DNA of 64,000 bases from Bacteroidales bacterium (GTDB lineage Bacteria > Bacteroidota > Bacteroidia > Bacteroidales > UBA10428): contig JAMIIA010000174.1 of NCBI GenBank assembly GCA_035913795.1, positions 50,325-114,324 of the forward strand, written 5' to 3'. The position numbers were made by a program, and so were the translations under genes. How positions within the stretch are numbered: position 1 is the stretch's first letter; each line of letters opens with the position of its first letter. Below, one piece after another: positions 22,742-33,870 of the stretch. The notes beneath the pieces were generated by a model that saw nothing but the letters and a program-made list of their open reading frames with translations, was not told the origin of the DNA and did no database searches.

Positions 22742-23164
22742 ACAATTACCTAGGCATTGGAAGAAAACTCAATTTACCAATAAAAAATGGAAATACTTTG
22801 CGTGTTGCCTTGTATTGGTAATTTATGAAGCAGAAATAGGTTTTGTGGAGTTTTAGTAGTGGTATTTCAAGGCAGACAGAGTAAAAAAACTTTGGTAGTT
22901 ATTTGTTTTGTATTGTTTTTAGTGCATGGTTTTTTTTGAAGCTTTAAATAGGGTCAATTACCTTGGTCAATTCATACTATAAGAATGAAAATCTCTACAA
23001 AACACCAGGTCGATAGACTTATCGAGGATTTGGAACTCAAAAATCAGGCGCTTACGAAAATATTACTGGAATCTGAAAAGGCAAGAAAGAAAAACTTCAA
23101 TCAGCCACAACAGGTCACAAATATTGCCAACCCAAATAACAACCTTATTAAATTCTTTTCTGCT

Positions 23165-26100
23165 ATGAAAGCGAAATTTTTTACTATCCGGTTTATTGTT
23201 TTTTTAACCATTGCATCTGCTTTTATTTTGAGTGTAGATGCTCAAACTTTTGAAAATGGCGTAATGAAAGGTGTGGTTCGAGTAAAGCTCGATCCAAAAC
23301 TTGTGACAGCTCAAACCGGTATCAAGCCTTTTTCTAAGAAAGGAATTGTGTATACAGGCATACAGCAGCTCGATAATGTGAATACTTCGATTAAATCAAC
23401 CTCGGTTAAAAGGGTTTTTGCTTACTCCGAAAAGTTTGAAGAAAGGCACCGCAAATATGGTTTGCACCTTTGGTACGAGATACAATATTCTGAAGCTTTA
23501 AGTGCTACTGAGGTGGCAAAAGCCTATGCAGGTGTATCTGGAGTAATTGAATCGGAGCCTGTGTACGAAAAAAAGCTTATTGATAAGGTATTATCTACAC
23601 AAGCCACTGATGTTACTGCATGGTCGGGCAATTTCAACGACCCGTATCTTCCAGATCAGTGGCATTACAACAATACAGGACAAACAGGTGGAACCATTGG
23701 CGCTGACATCAACTTATACGAAGCATGGGAAACTTCAACGGGTTCGCCCAAAGTAATAGTTTCGGTGCATGATGTGGGTATTGATTATTCACACGAAGAT
23801 CTTGCCTCAAATATGTGGGTAAACCAGGCTGAATTCAATGGCACAAAAGGTGTGGACGATGATGGGAATGGATACCTCGATGACATTTACGGGTTTAATT
23901 TTGTGGATAATTATGGGGAGATTACCCCAGGCGACCATGCAACTCATGTTGCCGGCATTATTGGTGCAGTCAATAACAATGGCATCGGAATAAGTGGTAT
24001 TGCAGGTGGCACCAACCACAACGATGGTGTTAAACTTATGTCGTGCCAGATAATCGGCGGTTATGCTCGTGTGGAAGAGTCGTTCATTTATGCTGCCGAT
24101 AATGGCGCTGTTATATCGCAGAATAGTTGGGGATATTCCTATCCTGGATCGGTAGAGCAGGTAGTGCTTGATGCTATTGATTATTTTATAGCCGAAGCGG
24201 GTAATTTTTCCGGAAGTCTGATGAAAGGTGGAGTTGTTATTTTTGCAGCAGGAAATGCTAACTGGGATGCCGATTTTTGGCCAGGGTACTATGAAAATGT
24301 GATTTCTGTATCGGCCTTAAACCACAACAATGTTAAGGCGGAATATTCTAATTATGGATCGTGGGTAGACATAGCTGCACCTGGTGGAGATTATAGCAAT
24401 GGTATTGCAACCAATGTACTCAGTACCCTTGCCAATAACAACTACGGTTATATGGAAGGCACTTCGATGGCCTGTCCGCATGTTTCGGGCGTTGCGGCTC
24501 TTGTTGTTGCTGCAAATAATAACCAAAACTTTACCAACACAGCTTTAAAAAACCATTTGTTAACAGCCTACCGGTTAATCGATACCATAACTGCCAATGA
24601 GTCTTTTGCCGGCAAACTTGGAATTGGTGTAATCGATGCGGCATTGGCAGTGGCTTTCGACAGCGGCATTGCACCCAATGCCATTGCCAATTTAAATGTA
24701 ACAGGTACTTCCCAGGATTTTGCAACCCTCCAATGGTCAGTGCCCGCGGATGGCGATGACGATAAGCCAATTGGATTCGAGGTTTTGTATTCTTTGCAGA
24801 ACATTACTCCGGCAACCATTCAGTTTGCAAAAACAAAGCTTATCGATAATAGTCAAAGTGTAGGCATCTTAGTAAATGCCGAAGTCAACGCTCTTATTCC
24901 ATTATCTACTTACTTTTTTGCAGTTCGTTCAATCGATCGTTGGGGAAATATTTCAAACCTGTCCAATATTGTATCGGCCAATACCAACGAAGGTCCTAAT
25001 GCCAGTGTTGACCGATCGGATCTTAGCATTCACATCGATGCTTCTGTTTCACTCATTGGTTCCGATACCATTAACCTCCTTAATTCCGGACAGGGAATTT
25101 TGCGTTGGACGGCCGATGCACGTCACGTTTCTCAAATCGATCAGTACAACAATACTCACATTCATTACCCCAAGCTTAAACAGCCGCTGGGTGATAAAAG
25201 AATTTCGGTTTCATCGAATGAATTGACCAGAGAAAATAAAATAGTTCCCATGGGGCAGCAATATGAGTATAACGAACTTAACTATTGCGATTATTCGAGG
25301 GGTTTATTTATTCTGGGCGAAACCAATCTAAACTATACCAACTCTTCTGCAACAAGGTTTTTTGTTACCGATGCCAATGGTTTTAACCTTACCCAGGTTC
25401 AGGCCTTGCTTAAGCAAGACAATGTTTTCGGGCCTATCGTTTTAGAAGTTTATTTGGGCGAAAGCATTTACAATTCCCGTTTAGTTTATGCGCAGGAAGT
25501 ATACAGCTATAGCAAAACAGAATATCAGCATAGTATTGATCTGGAGGAGCAGCTCTTTTTTCAGCAGGGCGAATACTTTTGGCTTGTTTTTCATGTACCT
25601 GCAGGGAATTTATATCCGCTTGGCGCAGGTTTTGAGCTGGCAACCAACCACAGTAATAATTGTTTCTTCAGCCTAAATCTCGGACAGTCGTGGCAAAGGC
25701 TCGAGGATGTGTATTGGGACAACCGCCTTGTGTGGGCAGTTACTGCCATAAGTCAGTATAAAACACTCGGTGAATATATTAGCATTTTACCTGATAATGG
25801 CGATATAGCTTCAGCTGGTGCGCAACACATCGAGGTTTCAGTAGATGCCTCGAACCTTGTGAGTGGTATTTACAATTCGAACATAGTGCTTCAGACCAAC
25901 GAACCCGAAGAACAAATTATTCGAATTCCCATAAATCTGACCATAACAGGTCGGAAGCCAATTATTACCAGCAACGATATCACCGATTTTGGAGGAATAT
26001 TATACGGAAACGAAAAAACCGTTGACATTGCATTCCAAAACGAAGGATATGGACCTTTCGAGAACATAGCTGCATCGATTTCCGATTCGCAGTTTACAAT

Positions 26101-29100
26101 TGTGGGTTCGCCACCCTACAGCATTAGTGCACGAAGCGAACAGATGATTTCGATCACGTTCAAACCTTCGGCACCAGGCAACAGCAATGCCGTTCTAACC
26201 CTGTCGGACGATAAAGGAAACACCTTTACATTCAGCTTATTTGGTGTAGCAGCCCAACCTCCGGTAATCGCAATTTCCCCGGCCGATACTACCATCTCAG
26301 GCTTATCAATTGGCGATACAGTTACTTCAGAATTATACCTTATCAACCAGGGTAACTATCCGCTGAAATATTATTTTCCTTCGTTTGCCGATGGATCAAA
26401 CATTGATCAGGTTGACAAATACATTTCAAAATTCGGTTATTCTTCCTCTATTGATACAGCTTTGTTTGAGTGGAATGAAATTTCGTCGAATGGCACAAAA
26501 GTAACCGACGAATTTAAAATCGATGCAAAACGGTTTTCCGATCCGGTTTCTTTAGGCTTCAGTTTCCCCTTTTTCGGAAAACCGGAAACACAGGTGTTTA
26601 TTACCGATCGGTTTCTGTTATCCTTCGATCAGAATACTACCTTCAACGTGAGTCCGATACGTTTTAAGGATCAATATAGTCCTGACAGGTTTATCGGTGC
26701 CATTGGCTTGCAGTTTTACCCGGAAGTAAGTGGCGATGTATATTATAAATGCCTGCCCGACAGGTTTATTGTTGAGTATAAAAATGCAGCAATGTATTAT
26801 TCTGATCCGGTAACATGGCAATTGGAATATGTAAACATCGATGTTCAAATGGTATTGTTTGATAATGGCGACATCGGATTTTTTTATAATAATGTATCTT
26901 CTTTATATAATTCTAACGAGTTCAATTATGGTGCTTATATTGGAATCGAGGACCAAAATATCGACGATGGTTTACGCGTATACGATCAGAATTCGAATTA
27001 TCAAGACGGCAAATTTTGTCCTATCGACGATAGTGCAGCGGTTATAATCAAGAATCCGGGTATGGGAATTGTTAAGCAGCTGGATAATTCGTTCGGAACG
27101 ATTCAACCAGGCGATTCAGTAATGGTAAATTATACCATCGAAACTTCCGCTCTCTGGCAAGATAATTTTACCGAGCGCTTGAGCATTGTTTCAAACGATC
27201 CTTTTAATAATCCGGTATATTCAACCATTCACCTCAATATAACTAGCGGTGGTTTGCCGGAAGTATGCCTGAATACCGATACCCTCAATTTTGGAGACGT
27301 ATTCCAAACCGGCAAAAAGGCTTTATCTTTTATTGCTATCAACTCGGGTAGCCTTGCGGTAGATATCGATACAATGTATTTTGTTCAGAACGATTATGTT
27401 ATTTCGAACGGCCAGGTACCCATTGAATTAAAGGCAAAGCACTCCCTGATATTCGAAATTAGCGTTCTGACAGCAACCCTTGGAGTTAAAAATGATATCC
27501 TAATTATTAAAACCAACGATGGAGATTCGTTGCAATTAAGTTTGCTGGGTGAAATCATTGAAGCACCAATAATCTCAGTGGATTTAACTACCATTAATGA
27601 AACACTCAATCATGGCGATAGTACTTTGTTAAATTTTACTGTGAATAATACGGGTGGCAATAATCTCGAAATTTCACCTGTCGGAAACGATTGGCTTACT
27701 GTTTCCACCACAAAGCAACCAATTTCCTATAATTATTCAATGAGTTCAGGCAAAGAGCTGAATGGTCCTGTTTGCAACTGGGTAGATATATTACAAACCG
27801 GAACAGAACACTCTTCGACTCTGGATCCTTTCGATCCGCAAAAGTTATGGGGTACTTTGGCATTGCCCTTCCCTTTTAAATTTTATGGAATTGATTACGA
27901 TACGATATACTTTACTTTAAGCGGTTTATTGTCGTTTGATAATTCCAATGGCTCGGATCTGGCTTGGGGCCCGCCAAATACAATTCCTTCTATGGAGCTA
28001 CCCAATAACTTCATATCCCCATTATGGGCGTTTGGTGGTCCGGCATACAAAGTTTATTTCCCTGATGCAGGAATTTATACCATGGTTTTCAGCGATAAAG
28101 TTGTCATTACCTATCAGGATTTCTTGAACAACTTTGGCATGGGCGATCCGGTATCGTTTCAGGCTATACTGTATGCCGATGGTAAAATCAAATTTCAATA
28201 CAATATAACTGGTTCCGACATTACATCGAACCTAGCACTTATTGGCATTGAAAACCAGGATGGCACCAAAGGAAAACAGGCATCTTATCGCCAGTGGTTT
28301 GTTACCGATGATCTTGCTATTATTTTTATACCAGCCGATACCTACGAAGTCGAGCCAGCAGCCTCAGCTACATTCGATTTAAAAGTTTCTGCAAAAGAAC
28401 TTTACGGAGGGACCTACCAGGGTAAGCTGGCCATAAATAACAACACACCCGATACAGCCAACTATGAAATACCTGCAAGTCTGACAGTAATTGGCGAACC
28501 AATTCTCGAAGCGCCTGCTCACATTCAATTCGACACCATATTTGTATATGATACCATAGACGATTGGGGGATGCCCATACCAAAATCCCATATCCGCGAG
28601 TTTTTACTAAAAAATACGGGCACATCATTGGTAAGCGTATCTTCGATTTACCTGCTGCAAAATGTAGAAACTGTGGCAGAGTCGTATGTATGTATTCACG
28701 ATCCGTGGTTTGGGCTCTTGTGTTCCTGGGCAGATATTTCCACCGAAACTTTTCCTGTTGAGCTAAGACCAGGCGAACAGAAATCTTTCCGCGTGCGTAT
28801 TACACCCACCGGAAGTAATATTAACCTGAATGATACCCTGATTATTCAATCGAATGCATTGGTGAATGAACTCAAGATTCCGGTTTCGGCATTTGTTTCT
28901 CTGCCACCGGTACTCAATATACAGGATAATATAATTACCGTAATTGCTCATAATAGTTCGCACCAGGAGAATCGTAGTCTTAATCTGGATAATACTGCCG
29001 GTTCGGCCAATCTGAACTATAGTCTGTCTCTTAAATTCGAACGAACCGGAAGCGAACCTTCTGCCGCAAGTTTGAGTGCTGTAAAGACACTGTTTGGCGA

Positions 29101-30691
29101 AAGTGCAAAGGCGCCTATGCTTCAAAGTACAATGGTATCTTCGAATCAGGTAATTTCTAAAATGTCGCCGGTAGGATATAACCGTGTATTGGAATACGAT
29201 ACAGCTTCTACTGCTGCAAACTCGGTTGGTTATGGTGGCGAAATGGCTTTCCATTCCGCCACGGCATTTTATGCACCGGCCAACGGGTTTAACCTTACGC
29301 ATGTGATGAATTATGTGGTGCCTCGTGCCTGGCTGAACTCTAGAATAACGCTTGAGATATTGAGTGGTACCGATAATATTAATAATGCAATAGTTTTGGC
29401 CAGCCAAACAGTTGAACATAACATTTCGTCTCCCGACAATACCGGTAGCTTTTTGACAATAAAACTTGATGAAAGCATTTCTTTTTATCCGAACGAAAAG
29501 TTTTATGTGGTATTTAGATATCCTTTAGGCCTCGAATTTCCTCAAGGTTTGGGAGAGTTGGTTGTGCCTTCTGCTTCCAACAGATTCTTTTTTGGTGACG
29601 GTAAAGGTTGGTACGATTTAATTGGCCAGGGATTCGACGAACTGGGTTGGATGGTTAAAGCGCTTGAAGAAGAAGCCAATAGTGGTTCGTGGGTAGAAAT
29701 TACTTCGGCATTATCAGGAACAATTGTACCTGGTGGTTCGGTAGATGTTGGTTTGGCCTTCGATGCAGAATGGACGCAACCCGGAGACAATACTGCCAAA
29801 CTTGAAATTAATACCAACGACCCCAAAAACCTGAAGGGCCTTGCCACTCTTAAACTACTGCGCAACAAAGCGCCTGAATTTAAAAATGCCCCTGCACTTA
29901 AGCTCTATGCCACTGAGGGTGTTGTATCGAATTATACCATTGAGGCTACCGATCTGGAAGCCGATGCATTTGAATATGCACTGGAAGGCAGTGTGGAGTA
30001 TTTAACAAGCGCAGAAAATAACGGAAAATTTGAGCTTACTTTTTCGCCCGGGTTTGATGCAGCTGCACAATACAATTTTAACGTTTCTGCAACCGACACA
30101 AACGGAAACAAATCGCTATTGCCTGTATCCATTCAGCTTACAAATGTGAACCGAGCCCCGGTTGCGATTTCTGCCCTCGATGATGTTACTCTATACCTTG
30201 CAACGGGCATAGAGGTAATCCCTACGAAATCGATGTTTACCGATCCCGATGGCGATGACTATACAGTTACCGGAATAATCAACGATAACAGCATTGCCGA
30301 ATTATTTAGTTCCGAATCTAGTGTTGCCCTGCAACCGCTAACGCTTGGTAATACCTTTGTCACATTGTATGTTACCGATAGCCATGGCGCAGCAACCAAT
30401 GCTTCTTTTAATGTGGGTGTGCAAGCAGTATCTGGAACCAGGGAAATTGCGGAAGATGGATTCGAAGTGTTTCCAAATCCCGCCACTGATGTTTTCAAGG
30501 TAATGGCTGGAAATACTATATCTGGTTTGGTTACCATTTATATAATAGATTCCAGAGGCAATACCGTTTCGACCATTACTACGCAAAAGGAGGAAACCAC
30601 AATTGATATCAGAAATTTACCCGAAGGCATCTACACTCTTCAAATAATCAATGGTAAAAATCAGGTGCAAAAAGTATTTATTAAAAAGTAA
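23165..30691 (+). CDS. Very large S8 subtilase with FN3/Ig-like (ASH-type) repeats and T9SS domain
   Basis: Catalytic D (VHDVGID), H (HATHVAG) and S (GTSMACPHV); C-terminal VFPNP..LPEGIY. A signal peptide follows Met at 23165; the frame is open from 22985. Confidence 0.9.
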   Translation: MKAKFFTIRFIVFLTIASAFILSVDAQTFENGVMKGVVRVKLDPKLVTAQTGIKPFSKKGIVYTGIQQLDNVNTSIKSTSVKRVFAYSEKFEERHRKYGLHLWYEIQYSEALSATEVAKAYAGVSGVIESEPVYEKKLIDKVLSTQATDVTAWSGNFNDPYLPDQWHYNNTGQTGGTIGADINLYEAWETSTGSPKVIVSVHDVGIDYSHEDLASNMWVNQAEFNGTKGVDDDGNGYLDDIYGFNFVDNYGEITPGDHATHVAGIIGAVNNNGIGISGIAGGTNHNDGVKLMSCQIIGGYARVEESFIYAADNGAVISQNSWGYSYPGSVEQVVLDAIDYFIAEAGNFSGSLMKGGVVIFAAGNANWDADFWPGYYENVISVSALNHNNVKAEYSNYGSWVDIAAPGGDYSNGIATNVLSTLANNNYGYMEGTSMACPHVSGVAALVVAANNNQNFTNTALKNHLLTAYRLIDTITANESFAGKLGIGVIDAALAVAFDSGIAPNAIANLNVTGTSQDFATLQWSVPADGDDDKPIGFEVLYSLQNITPATIQFAKTKLIDNSQSVGILVNAEVNALIPLSTYFFAVRSIDRWGNISNLSNIVSANTNEGPNASVDRSDLSIHIDASVSLIGSDTINLLNSGQGILRWTADARHVSQIDQYNNTHIHYPKLKQPLGDKRISVSSNELTRENKIVPMGQQYEYNELNYCDYSRGLFILGETNLNYTNSSATRFFVTDANGFNLTQVQALLKQDNVFGPIVLEVYLGESIYNSRLVYAQEVYSYSKTEYQHSIDLEEQLFFQQGEYFWLVFHVPAGNLYPLGAGFELATNHSNNCFFSLNLGQSWQRLEDVYWDNRLVWAVTAISQYKTLGEYISILPDNGDIASAGAQHIEVSVDASNLVSGIYNSNIVLQTNEPEEQIIRIPINLTITGRKPIITSNDITDFGGILYGNEKTVDIAFQNEGYGPFENIAASISDSQFTIVGSPPYSISARSEQMISITFKPSAPGNSNAVLTLSDDKGNTFTFSLFGVAAQPPVIAISPADTTISGLSIGDTVTSELYLINQGNYPLKYYFPSFADGSNIDQVDKYISKFGYSSSIDTALFEWNEISSNGTKVTDEFKIDAKRFSDPVSLGFSFPFFGKPETQVFITDRFLLSFDQNTTFNVSPIRFKDQYSPDRFIGAIGLQFYPEVSGDVYYKCLPDRFIVEYKNAAMYYSDPVTWQLEYVNIDVQMVLFDNGDIGFFYNNVSSLYNSNEFNYGAYIGIEDQNIDDGLRVYDQNSNYQDGKFCPIDDSAAVIIKNPGMGIVKQLDNSFGTIQPGDSVMVNYTIETSALWQDNFTERLSIVSNDPFNNPVYSTIHLNITSGGLPEVCLNTDTLNFGDVFQTGKKALSFIAINSGSLAVDIDTMYFVQNDYVISNGQVPIELKAKHSLIFEISVLTATLGVKNDILIIKTNDGDSLQLSLLGEIIEAPIISVDLTTINETLNHGDSTLLNFTVNNTGGNNLEISPVGNDWLTVSTTKQPISYNYSMSSGKELNGPVCNWVDILQTGTEHSSTLDPFDPQKLWGTLALPFPFKFYGIDYDTIYFTLSGLLSFDNSNGSDLAWGPPNTIPSMELPNNFISPLWAFGGPAYKVYFPDAGIYTMVFSDKVVITYQDFLNNFGMGDPVSFQAILYADGKIKFQYNITGSDITSNLALIGIENQDGTKGKQASYRQWFVTDDLAIIFIPADTYEVEPAASATFDLKVSAKELYGGTYQGKLAINNNTPDTANYEIPASLTVIGEPILEAPAHIQFDTIFVYDTIDDWGMPIPKSHIREFLLKNTGTSLVSVSSIYLLQNVETVAESYVCIHDPWFGLLCSWADISTETFPVELRPGEQKSFRVRITPTGSNINLNDTLIIQSNALVNELKIPVSAFVSLPPVLNIQDNIITVIAHNSSHQENRSLNLDNTAGSANLNYSLSLKFERTGSEPSAASLSAVKTLFGESAKAPMLQSTMVSSNQVISKMSPVGYNRVLEYDTASTAANSVGYGGEMAFHSATAFYAPANGFNLTHVMNYVVPRAWLNSRITLEILSGTDNINNAIVLASQTVEHNISSPDNTGSFLTIKLDESISFYPNEKFYVVFRYPLGLEFPQGLGELVVPSASNRFFFGDGKGWYDLIGQGFDELGWMVKALEEEANSGSWVEITSALSGTIVPGGSVDVGLAFDAEWTQPGDNTAKLEINTNDPKNLKGLATLKLLRNKAPEFKNAPALKLYATEGVVSNYTIEATDLEADAFEYALEGSVEYLTSAENNGKFELTFSPGFDAAAQYNFNVSATDTNGNKSLLPVSIQLTNVNRAPVAISALDDVTLYLATGIEVIPTKSMFTDPDGDDYTVTGIINDNSIAELFSSESSVALQPLTLGNTFVTLYVTDSHGAATNASFNVGVQAVSGTREIAEDGFEVFPNPATDVFKVMAGNTISGLVTIYIIDSRGNTVSTITTQKEETTIDIRNLPEGIYTLQIINGKNQVQKVFIKK

Positions 30692-30874: not shown

Positions 30875-31522
30875 CTATTGAAACTTCGACCACAATTCAA
30901 CGGGTTTAAGGCTGAATATTTCATTAAACATCAATGCAACAATTACAACGAATAAAGTAAACGCAAGAAGAATACCTATCTGCAAAACCGATATCTTTTG
31001 TATATCCTGTCTGGCTTTAACATCGCATATTTCGCCTGGGCAATACTGCGCTTTTTCTTTATAAAACCATCCATAAAACAAGCAGCCCAGACAAATGCCA
31101 AATGCCGATTCGAAAAACAGAAAAATCAGGCAAATCAGACAAATAATACCGGTAATCACACTGTACGAATTCACCACCACCATAAGTGCAAACATGCTTG
31201 CTGCGAGGATTATTCCAATAATCCAGGCAAATTTCTTTTGGGCTGCACCCACATATTCCGGATTTTGGCGTCTGACAATTAACCGGCCTAAAATTAATGT
31301 TGGTGCGTATTTGGGACTAATTAATACCCGAATCAGAAAATCAGCAAGAAAAGCCGTGATTACATATTTAATGAGTAAAAAGTTACCCTTTAGCAAAATG
31401 AGCATTAACGACAAAAAGGTAAACAAAAAAAGTATTCCGGCCGAAGCTCTTATCTCGCGTTCGTTTAATACCGGAATGGCATAGCCCTCCACGGTTTCTC
31501 CAAATTCTAACTTTTTCTTCAT
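30875..31522 (-). CDS. DUF4395 membrane protein
   Basis: NEREIRASAG, AAQKKFAWIIG and FFESAFGICLGC. Confidence 0.75.
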   Translation of the reverse strand: MKKKLEFGETVEGYAIPVLNEREIRASAGILFLFTFLSLMLILLKGNFLLIKYVITAFLADFLIRVLISPKYAPTLILGRLIVRRQNPEYVGAAQKKFAWIIGIILAASMFALMVVVNSYSVITGIICLICLIFLFFESAFGICLGCLFYGWFYKEKAQYCPGEICDVKARQDIQKISVLQIGILLAFTLFVVIVALMFNEIFSLKPVELWSKFQ

Positions 31523-31530
31523 AATTTTTA

Positions 31531-33480
31531 TTATTGGTTATATACTTCTTCTGCTTTTTTTTCCATTTGTATTTTCAGCATTTTTTTCACTTGTTCGGGC
31601 GAAATGTCTGAACTATCAATTTCGTTATTTTTTGCTGGTTTCCCTGCTAATGCGCCCAGCACCTGGATCAATGCATCGATTTCCTGTTTTGTATTTTGAA
31701 TTCCAAAGCTGATACGCACTACCCCCGGCAGTTCTAACTTGGGCAATAAACTAACAATAAATCCCTGAAACCGTTCAAGATTAGACGGAATTTTTAGCAA
31801 ATGTTTAATGAGTATGTGCGAACAATGGCATCCGCTCCTTACCCCAATACCTCCTTGTAAGGCAAGCTGTTTGGCTACCTTAAAGGGCATAACCCCTTTA
31901 AGACTAAATACAATCACCCCAACTTTGCGATGGAAATCAGCAGCTTGTGTATCACTTATTCCATAAATGGTTATTCCCGGTATTTGTTTGATTTGTTCAA
32001 GAGCATAGGCCAACACTTCCTGTTCTTCGCGATAAATCTGGTCCATGCCAATTCTCTTCAAAAGAACGAAAGCCTTTCCCATGGCTGCAATGCCACCTAC
32101 ATTTTCCTCGCCTGCTTCCTGTATATGGTTCAGTCTTTCTGCATCGAAGAAAAGCAGCCCCTTTCTTGCCACAAGCGCACCACTGCCAAAAGGGGCATAC
32201 ATTTTATGAGCCGAAAAAGCCAGAAAGTCGATTCCCCAGTTTTCAATTTCTACCTCGCGGTGTGCAACAAGCTGTGCTGCATCGACCAATAAAAGTGCCT
32301 TATAATGATGCACAATTTTACTTATCTCCTGAAGGTTGTTGCATGTTCCCAGCACATTCGAAGCGCCAGAAACCGCTACCAGTTTTATCTGTTTTTTTCC
32401 AAACTCACCGTTCAGATTAAAGGCCTTTAAAAGTGTTTCCAGTTCGTTCAAATCAATGAAACCCTTGGCATCAATTTTCAAACGTAAAAGTGTCATTCCG
32501 GGTACCATGCGCCAGGGCAACTCGTTCGAATTGTGTTCGAGCATGGTATTCAGCACAACCGGTTCAATGTCATCAGAAGAATTGTTTTTAAAACTTTCGG
32601 CAACCAGGTTGATGGCTTCTGTTGTATTCGAAGTAAAAAAAATATCAAAGTTTTTCAGGTTGAAATTCAATGCGCCGGAACAGATCGATTTTGCTTCGCG
32701 AATTATATCCTCACGAACCGGTTTGGGCTGAAACCAGCTCTGATAAAAAGTTTCAAGGATAGGCATGAAGGTTGGTGTACTTGCCGCATTGTCAAAATTG
32801 ATAAAGCGTCTTACCCCGGAAATTGTTGGAACGGTGCTATCATTTCCAATCAGCGTTTTGTTGAGTTCTGATAGCAATTCTTTCCCTGTAAATTTTTCCA
32901 GTCTGTCGCGATAAAACAGTTCTTTCACTGTCTTTTGCTCAGCAGTAATTTCCCTGAAAATGTTTGCTCCATATTTCCGAAAAATTTGAAGTGCACTGAC
33001 AAAGGCCACAATGTTTACGATGGCAGGAGTTCCGGCTTCGAATTTATTGGGTGTTTTGGACCATATTACCCAACCAGGTGCCACAAGGCGGGCAGTTCCA
33101 CCTCCGGCCTGAAATGCAATATTCGTGTTCAGAACTTTTCGTTTTACAGCCAGGGCAATTACTCCCAAAGACAAGCCGAATTCGGCAGCTGACAAACTCC
33201 GATAATTTTCGGTGCTAAGCTGAGATTTCAGTATTTCTGCAATAAGCGGGGTGCAAAAAATCACCACATGGCTTTTGCTTTTTAAACCAAGCTTTGCCAA
33301 AACAATTTCTCTTGCTTTGTCGAACAAGTGAGTAGTTACCATGGAGTGATACCCGCTTCCGCGGTGCACATTGGAATAGGTCTCGAGAACAGAATGAATA
33401 CCTGATTTTAACTGGGTGAGTGCAGATTTCTGCTTGCTATCCCCTTGTGAAGCGATATTATTATTTTCGGTTGTTATCAT
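31531..33480 (-). CDS. Class-V PLP enzyme (SufS/cysteine-desulfurase-like) with an extra N-terminal partial module
   Basis: NFDNAASTP, NTTEAIN, LEHNSNELPW, DAAQ, FSAHKMYAPFG and RSGCHCS. Start set at MITTE; the ORF track starts at 33519. Confidence 0.85.
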   Translation of the reverse strand: MITTENNNIASQGDSKQKSALTQLKSGIHSVLETYSNVHRGSGYHSMVTTHLFDKAREIVLAKLGLKSKSHVVIFCTPLIAEILKSQLSTENYRSLSAAEFGLSLGVIALAVKRKVLNTNIAFQAGGGTARLVAPGWVIWSKTPNKFEAGTPAIVNIVAFVSALQIFRKYGANIFREITAEQKTVKELFYRDRLEKFTGKELLSELNKTLIGNDSTVPTISGVRRFINFDNAASTPTFMPILETFYQSWFQPKPVREDIIREAKSICSGALNFNLKNFDIFFTSNTTEAINLVAESFKNNSSDDIEPVVLNTMLEHNSNELPWRMVPGMTLLRLKIDAKGFIDLNELETLLKAFNLNGEFGKKQIKLVAVSGASNVLGTCNNLQEISKIVHHYKALLLVDAAQLVAHREVEIENWGIDFLAFSAHKMYAPFGSGALVARKGLLFFDAERLNHIQEAGEENVGGIAAMGKAFVLLKRIGMDQIYREEQEVLAYALEQIKQIPGITIYGISDTQAADFHRKVGVIVFSLKGVMPFKVAKQLALQGGIGVRSGCHCSHILIKHLLKIPSNLERFQGFIVSLLPKLELPGVVRISFGIQNTKQEIDALIQVLGALAGKPAKNNEIDSSDISPEQVKKMLKIQMEKKAEEVYNQ

Positions 33481-33621
33481 CTGTTTTAGTTTATTTTTTT
33501 TTAACCATATAGCCTGCATTCATGGGCATGCTCAATATTTACGATAAATCGGGGCTGGCGGAGTGTGTCTAACTTAATTCATAGGTGTGGTTCAATATAA
33601 ATCTTAATTGTTCGGGCACTT

Positions 33622-33870
33622 TCACTTATTATTGTATAAGTTTAAAAACAACGCAAATTGGTATTCAAGAATGCTGATGCAGGCCTTTGTAAGCATTTTG
33701 GCCATAAAGAAAACCACCCGGAAAAACTGTAACCTTAATACAAGTGCAAAGTAGCCAAGACACACAATAGCGATTGCCTTTTCAAAAGGCTGAAGATTTT
33801 TGAATAGTATCACCATCAGCACTAATAATCCTCCAATTTCTACCAGACTTATCCGCATTGATTCTTTCAT
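33622..33870 (-). CDS. Small hypothetical membrane protein
   Basis: Hydrophobic 82-aa ORF that starts 2 bp after the upstream gene. Confidence 0.45.
   Translation of the reverse strand: MKESMRISLVEIGGLLVLMVILFKNLQPFEKAIAIVCLGYFALVLRLQFFRVVFFMAKMLTKACISILEYQFALFLNLYNNK

Follow-up and report, generated by a model that had tools for sequence, protein, structure and literature searches.

The question raised by the window analysed here (64,000 nucleotides of a Bacteroidales bacterium, GenBank assembly GCA_035913795.1, contig JAMIIA010000174.1, positions 50,325 to 114,324 of the forward strand) is how a SufS-like enzyme could work when its catalytic module lacks the elements that a SufS subunit lends to its partner, and when those elements are found on a second, N-terminal module of the same polypeptide. 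To our knowledge, every characterised cysteine desulfurase (IscS, NifS, SufS, CsdA, NFS1) is a symmetric homodimer in which the active sites are completed mutually. We consider it probable that the product of this gene is a single-chain asymmetric pseudo-dimer with one active site, that is, a SufS-like (type II) enzyme of the cysteine desulfurase or selenocysteine-lyase type; it belongs to a widespread, uncharacterised family. The open reading frame (ORF) and its main parts are as follows.

31531 to 33519, minus strand: whole ORF of 662 amino acids (aa), frame uninterrupted, stop codon at 31531 to 31533.
32965 to 33429, minus strand: N-module, residues 31-185, what remains of a SufS-like large domain after deletion of its core, without a pyridoxal 5'-phosphate (PLP) site.
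32815 to 32964, minus strand: linker, residues 186-235, two short helices.
31645 to 32814, minus strand: C-module, residues 236-625, a complete class-V PLP catalytic module of the SufS fold.

The start at 33480 assumed in the original prediction is Met14 of the 662-aa ORF, and use of this alternative start yields the 649-aa gene call (P0002). When the window coordinates were translated and checked, the motifs named in that prediction were all found in place: YSNVHRGSG (residues 48-56), GGGT (139-142), and KFEAGTP (159-165) in the N-module and FDNAAS (242-247), SAHK (436-439, with Lys439), EAGEEN (468-473), and RSGCHCSH (561-568) in the C-module. Analysis of the 662-aa protein with Pfam returned Aminotran_5 alone, in two stretches. 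The main one (PF00266) joins residues 288-617 to profile positions 58-371 with 257 bits, and the second joins residues ~119-194 to profile positions 207-282 (E 8.8e-8). The best matches among solved structures are SufS proteins, with an alignment that starts only at residue ~291 (E 2e-40). There is one PLP lysine per 662-aa chain.

The features that define the C-module are listed below.

32722 to 32745, minus strand: YQSWFQPK, residues 259-266, at the place of the absent NVHRG block.
32203 to 32214, minus strand: SAHK, residues 436-439, with the PLP lysine K439.
32101 to 32157, minus strand: residues 455-473, the place of the absent Gly-rich loop and hairpin (LLFFDAERLNHIQ), followed by EAGEEN.
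31816 to 31839, minus strand: RSGCHCSH, residues 561-568, in which R561 and C566 are the equivalents of E. coli R359 and the catalytic C364.
31729 to 31797, minus strand: residues 575-597, an insertion of ~20 aa after the Cys helix.

Comparison of the C-module with SufS chains by Foldseek gave template-modelling scores of 0.80-0.84, and its alignment with SufS-type enzymes runs end to end. The residues that a subunit contributes to its own active site are kept, namely the phosphate loop TSNTT, H329, N388, D413, Q416, S436/H438/K439, R561, C566, and R602, and the catalytic Cys loop R561-S-G-C-H-C566 aligns without gaps with R-T-G-T-H-C of SufS. The reaction catalysed is probably a PLP-dependent cleavage of a C-S (or C-Se) bond. 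Compared with the closest single-module relatives (see below), the C-module is missing a block of 8-10 aa (YSxVHRGxGF) and a block of ~19 aa (the GGG hairpin), and its EAGEEN has Glu-Glu in place of Thr-Pro. It also has an extra universal cysteine, C564, which creates a CxC motif where canonical SufS has Thr or His. The insertion after the Cys helix lies outside the Cys loop; it is common to the single-module relatives and absent from canonical SufS.

The pieces missing from the C-module are present in the N-module, together with the remnant of a former PLP site.

33352 to 33378, minus strand: YSNVHRGSG, residues 48-56, the alpha3-alpha4 loop, in which H52 and R53 correspond to H55 and R56 of E. 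coli SufS.
33166 to 33207, minus strand: NYRSLSAAEFGLSL, residues 105-118, the relic of the PLP-lysine strand (D-F-L-x-x-S-x-H-K) by hhalign.
33061 to 33105, minus strand: GGGTARLVAPGWVIW, residues 139-153, the Gly-rich loop and beta-hairpin (beta-latch).
33025 to 33039, minus strand: EAGTP, residues 161-165, in which T164 is the equivalent of E. coli T278.

In the latch, T142 is the equivalent of E. coli S254, and the strands of the predicted hairpin are residues 143-146 and 151-153. An AlphaFold2 (AF2) model shows that the N-module retains two long helices, beta-strands 84-89, 106-110, and 121-126, the beta-latch, and the helix that follows EAGTP. It has lost ~125 core residues (the PLP-binding strands, roughly B-E) and the entire small domain. 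In the hhalign alignment, NYRSLSAAEFG of the relic strand is matched with DYLVISAHKMY of the single-module relatives, so that E113 stands where the PLP Lys had been. Asp occupies this position in 250, and Glu in 86, of the 363 distinct family members on which all of the conservation counts reported here are based.

The 406-aa canonical SufS of the same genome, which is encoded next to a sufD-like gene, was used as a reference for the N-module. Residues 49-86 align without gaps with SufS residues 51-88 (z 5.5), and residues 119-194 align, also without gaps, with SufS residues 231-306 (z 7.4); neither score was reached in any of 300 shuffles. When the same two segments were compared with the protein's own C-module, no resemblance was found (z -0.1 and 1.0). 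A profile-profile comparison by hhalign of N-modules from ten genomes with the single-module relatives gave a probability of 99.8% (E 3.5e-28) over 155 columns. These sequence comparisons support the view of the N-module as a copy of the SufS-type fold from which the core has been deleted.

The role of the redistributed elements in SufS itself has been described. The Gly-rich loop and hairpin of one SufS monomer belong to the neighbouring monomer's active site (PMC10011822), and the R56 loop and the alpha4 helix come from the adjacent monomer as well (PMC11408855). The premise of the original prediction, that a partner subunit lends these elements in SufS, is borne out by both of these papers (PMC10011822, PMC11408855). 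In addition, catalysis depends on R56, which swings in to contact the substrate sulfur and also makes a contact with T278 (PMC11507941). From this literature on SufS, it follows that the three elements kept by the N-module and lost by the C-module are the trans-acting ones.

This reciprocal pattern of motifs, present in the N-module and missing from the C-module, was found in 363 of 363 distinct family members. In the N-module, the residues conserved are H52 (in 358 members), R53 (363), G54 (363), G139 (361), G140 (363), W153 (342), E161 (363), G163 (363), T164 (362), and P165 (362). Those of the C-module are H329 (363), D413 (363), H438 (363), K439 (362), E471 (317), E472 (336), R561 (363), C564 (361), C566 (363), H568 (358), and R602 (362); taken as a set, S436/H438/K439, the stacking H329, D413 at N1, and Q416 at O3' are invariant in 359-363 members. 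The mean frequency of the top residue is 0.82 in the N-module, 0.82 in the C-module, and 0.76 in the linker, and positions that are at least 90% conserved make up 49% of the N-module and 49% of the C-module. Being conserved to the same degree as the catalytic module, the N-module is under selection rather than decaying.

These counts bear on the proposal that the N-module is a regulatory or scaffolding pseudo-domain and that the C-module works without trans elements, possibly in a different PLP chemistry. A score below the SufS family cut-off, the lack of a linked acceptor gene, and the unique CxC motif and post-Cys insertion would all suit such a protein. We nevertheless regard it as very improbable, as R53, T164, E161, and the GGG are invariant in 362-363 of the 363 members while the relic PLP site has been destroyed, as R56 of SufS is essential (PMC11507941), and as an N-module left without its C-module has decayed. 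This last case is a remnant in a genome of the same genus (L030; G314:C1, ~79,700-80,010, minus strand) that contains the N-module only, with a frameshift and in-frame stops, NVYRCKG in place of NVHRGSG, EPGTP in place of EAGTP, and no C-module after it. To judge from these lesions, it is a decaying pseudogene of the two-module family.

The size of the family bears on whether the gene is genuine. An initial homologue search recovered 120 full-length homologs of 624-693 aa with 54-75% identity, and two more searches, made with divergent members, brought the family to at least 1,253 clusters (90% identity) at E <= 1e-50. An assembly or annotation artefact, in the form of a chimeric contig or a fused gene call, would have only the unusual length of the protein in its favour. 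More than 360 distinct sequences share this architecture; they come from independent assemblies, among them genomes that are complete or consist of a single contig (CP065006.1, G217, G304). The frame is uninterrupted, and composition along the 662-aa ORF is uniform. We consider the chance of an artefact to be negligible, and the assembly chimera that the original prediction had named as a possible refutation is excluded by this recurrence across independent assemblies and complete genomes.

The AF2 model of the full-length protein was built from a 120-sequence alignment. It is one compact body with a predicted local distance difference test score (pLDDT) of 85.8 and a predicted template-modelling score (pTM) of 0.89, a value that implies confident placement of the N-module, linker, and C-module relative to one another. 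When the N-module was folded alone, its helices and sheet had pLDDT values of 81-91. The NVHRG loop and the latch with EAGTP had values of 29-47 alone and 61-81 in the full-length model; this fits trans loops that would be ordered only against the C-module, although the alignment for the lone N-module was shallower (10 versus 120 sequences). Foldseek returned no significant match for the lone N-module model (best E 0.5), and 9 of the top 12 weak matches were class-V desulfurases.

One way for the N-module to serve the active site would be for the C-module to form a canonical C:C homodimer while each N-module folds back in cis and fills the gaps of its own C-module. The absent and the extra pieces do correspond one-to-one, and the C-module has an invariant Asn, N304, which is the counterpart of E. 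coli SufS N99, a residue that ties alpha6 to its own Gly-rich loop (PMC10011822). Both modules keep strands A, F, and G, so that filling of the C-module's gaps by the N-module in cis would be expected to produce a clash, and the helix that follows EAGTP, likewise present in both modules, would add to this steric clash. This Asn does not discriminate in favour of the arrangement, as it is found conserved in the type I desulfurases too, and these lack a latch. In addition, a gradual route to it from a fused dimer is hard to picture. For these reasons, we think that refilling in cis is very improbable. To serve the active site in the canonical manner, the N-module would have to sit in the position of the partner subunit.

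That position could be filled within one chain or between two. In a domain-swapped homodimer (or a higher oligomer), the N-modules would be exchanged, that of chain A completing the C-module of chain B and that of chain B the C-module of chain A, so that each dimer would have two active sites. Fold-type I enzymes are nearly always dimers, and the linker, with its 50 residues, has the length required for a swap. As they are blind to the difference between contacts within and between chains, the data on sequence, conservation, and co-variation fit this arrangement equally well. On the other side, AF2 puts the N-module on the C-module within one chain at the pTM given above; the linker is conserved (0.76) and predicted to be ordered (pLDDT 83-95), which suggests a fixed packing; and the N+C unit occurs once per chain as a cassette in giant multidomain proteins (see below). 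None of these points is decisive, and we hold a domain swap to be unlikely, though it deserves more weight than the other alternatives considered so far.

Co-variation between the modules was analysed by direct coupling analysis (DCA), with an effective number of sequences of 98 and then of 203 (363 sequences). The second-strongest coupling between the N- and C-modules joins V146 to N330 (rank 31 of ~151,000 pairs). Position 330, which adjoins the PLP-stacking H329, is also coupled to the latch residues T142, A143, and L145. Enrichment, defined a priori, is significant only in the top 20 (5 observed versus 1.3 expected, p 0.009), and four of these five pairs contain column 330. Ser330 is found in 49 of the 57 sequences that do not have Val146, and Thr142 is absent from 31 of the 40 sequences that have His330; the states at 146/330 and at 142/330 look compensatory. 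On the tree, changes involving His330 and the loss of Thr142 fall on the same branch 7 times versus ~0.6 expected, a co-change statistic that is inflated by long branches. Against an empirical null, 142 is the best N-module partner of 330 (1/146), and 330 is the second C-module partner of 143 (2/351). These data are suggestive of a co-variation that weakly links the latch of the N-module to the active site of the C-module.

Two further candidates for contacts between the modules were dropped. The pair S110-E471, considered as a reciprocal contact at the dead PLP site, ranked high on co-change and showed no specific compensation (DCA score 0.28), pointing to a long-branch effect. An argument from packing of alpha6 against alpha6' was set aside as well, as hhalign suggests that helix 93-102 may stem from a different core helix.

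Several observations weigh against the proposal that this protein is a single-chain pseudo-dimer. The Gly-rich loop has a pLDDT below 50 even in the full-length model, and an AF2 model of one chain is no guide to whether the packing is intramolecular or domain-swapped. The Foldseek search with the lone N-module model gave no significant match, the best having an E of 0.5. The couplings are imprecise, as DCA recovered 5 correct versus 4 incorrect strand pairs in the C-module's own sheet, and in the empirical null the pair 142-330 ranks 981 of 51,246 N x C pairs (top 2%). The protein scores 264.9 bits on the SufS subfamily model TIGR01979, below the cut-off of 475.1, and the canonical SufS of the same genome scores 579 bits. 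Finally, no conserved neighbours that point to a pathway were found, the eight other genomic contexts all being different.

Taking this evidence together, we propose that the single-chain pseudo-dimer would operate as follows. The N-module would pack on the C-module at the position of the second subunit and would close the single active site, and it would supply the essential Arg (R53) and the phosphate-binding Thr, while the beta-latch of the N-module would shield the persulfide on C566. Cysteine (or selenocysteine) would be converted to alanine, with a persulfide left on C566, and C564 may resolve or relay this persulfide internally. As no acceptor gene is linked, such a role of C564 would be a reasonable candidate mechanism. 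The post-Cys insertion may likewise have a bearing on the exit of the sulfur. A stronger form of this proposal, in which the enzyme is obligately monomeric and partner-independent and the CxC motif (C564/C566) resolves or relays the persulfide without SufE or SufU, is a tentative possibility that we put somewhat ahead of a domain swap and still think doubtful. If it is true, self-sufficiency would explain the stand-alone genes in bacteria and Asgard archaea and the presence of sulfur-mobilising cassettes in giant proteins. The enzyme would then be the first non-dimeric cysteine desulfurase and a minimal answer to the question of why a fold-type I enzyme needs a partner subunit.

Two other cysteines of the protein, C89 (33253-33255) and C280 (32680-32682), are each present in 80-84% of family members. 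The former lies in the dead phosphate loop of the N-module and the latter in the alpha4-equivalent helix of the C-module; in the single-module relatives, the residues found there are Thr and Val. Pseudo-symmetry might place C89 and C280 opposite each other. As they are only 80-84% conserved and not jointly required, they were rejected as a family-specific cysteine pair.

The origin of the two modules can be traced with the help of the single-module SufS-like relatives, which are uncharacterised proteins of ~430-490 aa (e.g. P0210, P0235, P0243). NVHRG, the GGG hairpin, and EAGT/SP follow one another in them as usual. These proteins are without a solved structure, fall below the SufS cut-off, are encoded by stand-alone genes, and are presumably homodimers. 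In common with the C-module they have a VPT..G..INFDNAASTP lead, GC(F/H)CAH, and the ~20-aa insertion after the Cys helix; in common with the N-module they have HRGxG and a spacing of 19 residues from GGG to EAGTP that includes a conserved Trp. When profiles were compared, the score of N-modules was 100 bits with the single-module relatives, 46 with canonical SufS, and 1 with C-modules, and the single-module relatives provided the best-scoring profile for 120 of the 120 N-modules tested. C-modules scored 316 bits with the single-module relatives versus 161 with canonical SufS. From these bit scores, both modules come from the same lineage of ~470 aa, with minimal overlap between them.

A maximum-likelihood tree was built from C-modules, single-module relatives, and canonical SufS (quick search, no bootstrap). 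It places all 53 two-module proteins on one side of a branch with 100% support in the Shimodaira-Hasegawa-like approximate likelihood ratio test (SH-aLRT), and the single-module proteins lie between the two-module proteins and SufS. This tree supports a single origin of the two-module architecture. The simplest history would be one tandem duplication of a ~470-aa ancestor in the single-module lineage, followed by reciprocal loss and then by horizontal spread. The duplication and complementary deletion proposed in the original prediction agree with this history, as the reciprocal losses, the common ~470-aa lineage, and the single origin are supported by the scores and the tree. Another class-V gene of the same genome, a 487-aa ORF (L003; G000:C151, 1369-2832), was tried as a single-module relative and rejected, as it belongs to a different, unnamed subfamily in which GNTHTG replaces NVHRG and in which a GGG hairpin, EDGGTP, and the Cys motif GGCSCAG are found.

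The hosts of the two-module family are Bacteroidota, Chloroflexota (Dehalococcoidia, Anaerolineales), Acidobacteriota (Aminicenantales), and several Asgard archaeal phyla. In an even sample of 301 genomes from the whole phylum, 2 had the N-module, and 6 of 18 other genomes of the same genus that were searched had it as well (39-73% identity). The patchy distribution and the 55-60% identity across phyla suggest horizontal transfer, and the family is probably mobile in this sense. The Asgard members come from Hermod-, Thor-, Odin-, and Promethearchaeota metagenome-assembled genomes (MAGs; P0345, P0365, P0367, P0387, P0389, P0452) and are ~41-46% identical to the bacterial ones; they imply that the gene has been transferred between domains or that MAG bins are contaminated.

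Of 150 representative clusters, 52 carry a complete N-module with a complete C-module after it. Separate N and C genes were looked for in this family and none were found; the C-only and N-only matches are contig-edge fragments, frameshifts, truncated calls, or pseudogenes. The complete N+C unit also occurs as a cassette inside giant proteins of 2,150-6,923 aa (P0136, P0165, P0174, P0186, P0187, P0192, P0207, P0241), and some of these cassettes branch off at the deepest levels of the family tree. Two of three giant proteins scanned also carry an HD or HATPase_c domain, and most of their length is without a Pfam match. Given such cassettes, the two modules together behave as a self-sufficient unit. 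In two metagenomic sequences (P0197, P0211), EAGTP of the N-module joins the middle of the C-module directly, with 130-270 residues skipped; this fusion could result from recombination or from assembly collapse between the homologous modules.

When compared with known systems, this protein is closest to the type II enzymes SufS, CsdA (CsdB), and plastid Nfs2. It has the same class-V fold-type I PLP fold, all of the cis active-site residues, and the short loop with the catalytic Cys (R-x-G-x-H-C), and the type II hallmarks (the Gly-rich loop with its hairpin, the R56-type Arg loop, and the EAGT Thr) are also found here. Unlike in type II enzymes, the trans-acting hallmarks are on a separate 155-residue module of the same chain and not on the catalytic module, and there is one PLP site per 662-aa chain. 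Further differences are G-C-H-C in place of G-H-H-C, the ~20-aa insertion after the Cys helix, and the fact that no sufE, sufU, or sufBCD is linked to the gene while a separate canonical SufS is present in the genome.

The cargo cysteine desulfurase of Family 2A encapsulins (~620 aa) is similar in length, and there too a SufS-like C-terminal domain is preceded by a long extension. In the cargo enzyme, this extension is disordered and serves in targeting; the one found here is a folded, conserved SufS relic. Identity as a Family 2A cargo was rejected on this ground, on the score of 201.5 bits with NF041166, the Family 2A cargo model with a cut-off of 800, and on the finding of no encapsulin gene among the neighbours of the 662-aa ORF.

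By analogy, the closest precedent for the principle is the glycine decarboxylase P-protein (GcvP, split into GcvPA/GcvPB or fused), an asymmetric fold-type I pseudo-dimer with PLP in one half only. The likeness is that each functional unit comprises two homologous modules, one of which binds PLP. The pTM of 0.89 and the co-variation of position 330 with residues 142-146 would agree with a pseudo-two-fold arrangement like that of fold-type I dimers. The P-protein differs in family and chemistry, in having a full-size silent half (~450 aa) and not a 155-residue stub, and in that its catalytic half has not been described as reciprocally trimmed; sequence similarity to GcvPB is negligible (E 8e-4). 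Searches of the literature for a pseudo-dimeric, monomeric, single-chain, or fused cysteine desulfurase found none. The statement in the original prediction that no such enzyme had been described therefore holds for the cysteine desulfurases in the literature searched, but not for fold-type I enzymes at large, given the P-protein.

Current work on SufS is centred on communication across the dimer via the beta-latch and the R56 loop. In this setting, the two-module family looks like a natural experiment in which the partner has been stripped to the elements that it lends, with ~155 residues as the minimal partner. As half-site cross-talk would be ruled out in a protein with one site, it would be a clean system in which to study the roles of the latch and the Arg loop. 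It also appears to be a clear and datable case of duplication followed by reciprocal degeneration within one gene, with the single-module sister lineage extant, and it should be of interest to workers on Fe-S biogenesis and on PLP enzymes.

The genomic context adds to this picture. The genome has kept its canonical SufS beside sufD, and the two-module enzyme therefore supplements the housekeeping Suf system and does not replace it. When 10 genomic contexts of the family gene were inspected, no Suf genes (sufE, sufU, sufBCD) were found nearby. One gene lies directly downstream of the desulfurase gene, and the remaining features of the ORF are its two ends.

30875 to 31522, minus strand: DUF4395 membrane protein of 215 aa with a CxxC motif, 8 bp downstream of the stop codon.
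33430 to 33519, minus strand: N-terminal tail, residues 1-30, non-conserved (mean top-residue frequency 0.28) and predicted to be disordered (pLDDT 36-56).
31534 to 31644, minus strand: C-terminal tail, residues 626-662, poorly conserved, one helix.

The DUF4395 gene is probably co-transcribed with the desulfurase gene. At this locus it recurs only in the closest relative (CP065006.1, 88% identity) and is absent from eight other contexts, and its product is probably not part of the system. A match of ~60 aa to the C-terminal tail of the DUF4395 protein lies downstream of the family gene in another locus (L026).

On the other side of the desulfurase gene, between it and a CarboxypepD_reg-like gene, lies a hydrophobic ORF of 82 aa (33622-33870, minus strand) with no family match, and the closest relative has a 68-aa ORF in the same position (L031, 2105-2311). 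Elsewhere in the window, a 2,568-aa ORF (22985-30691, plus strand) has, by eye, subtilisin-type motifs (GTSMACPHVSG) and a C-terminal tail that resembles a type IX secretion sorting domain.

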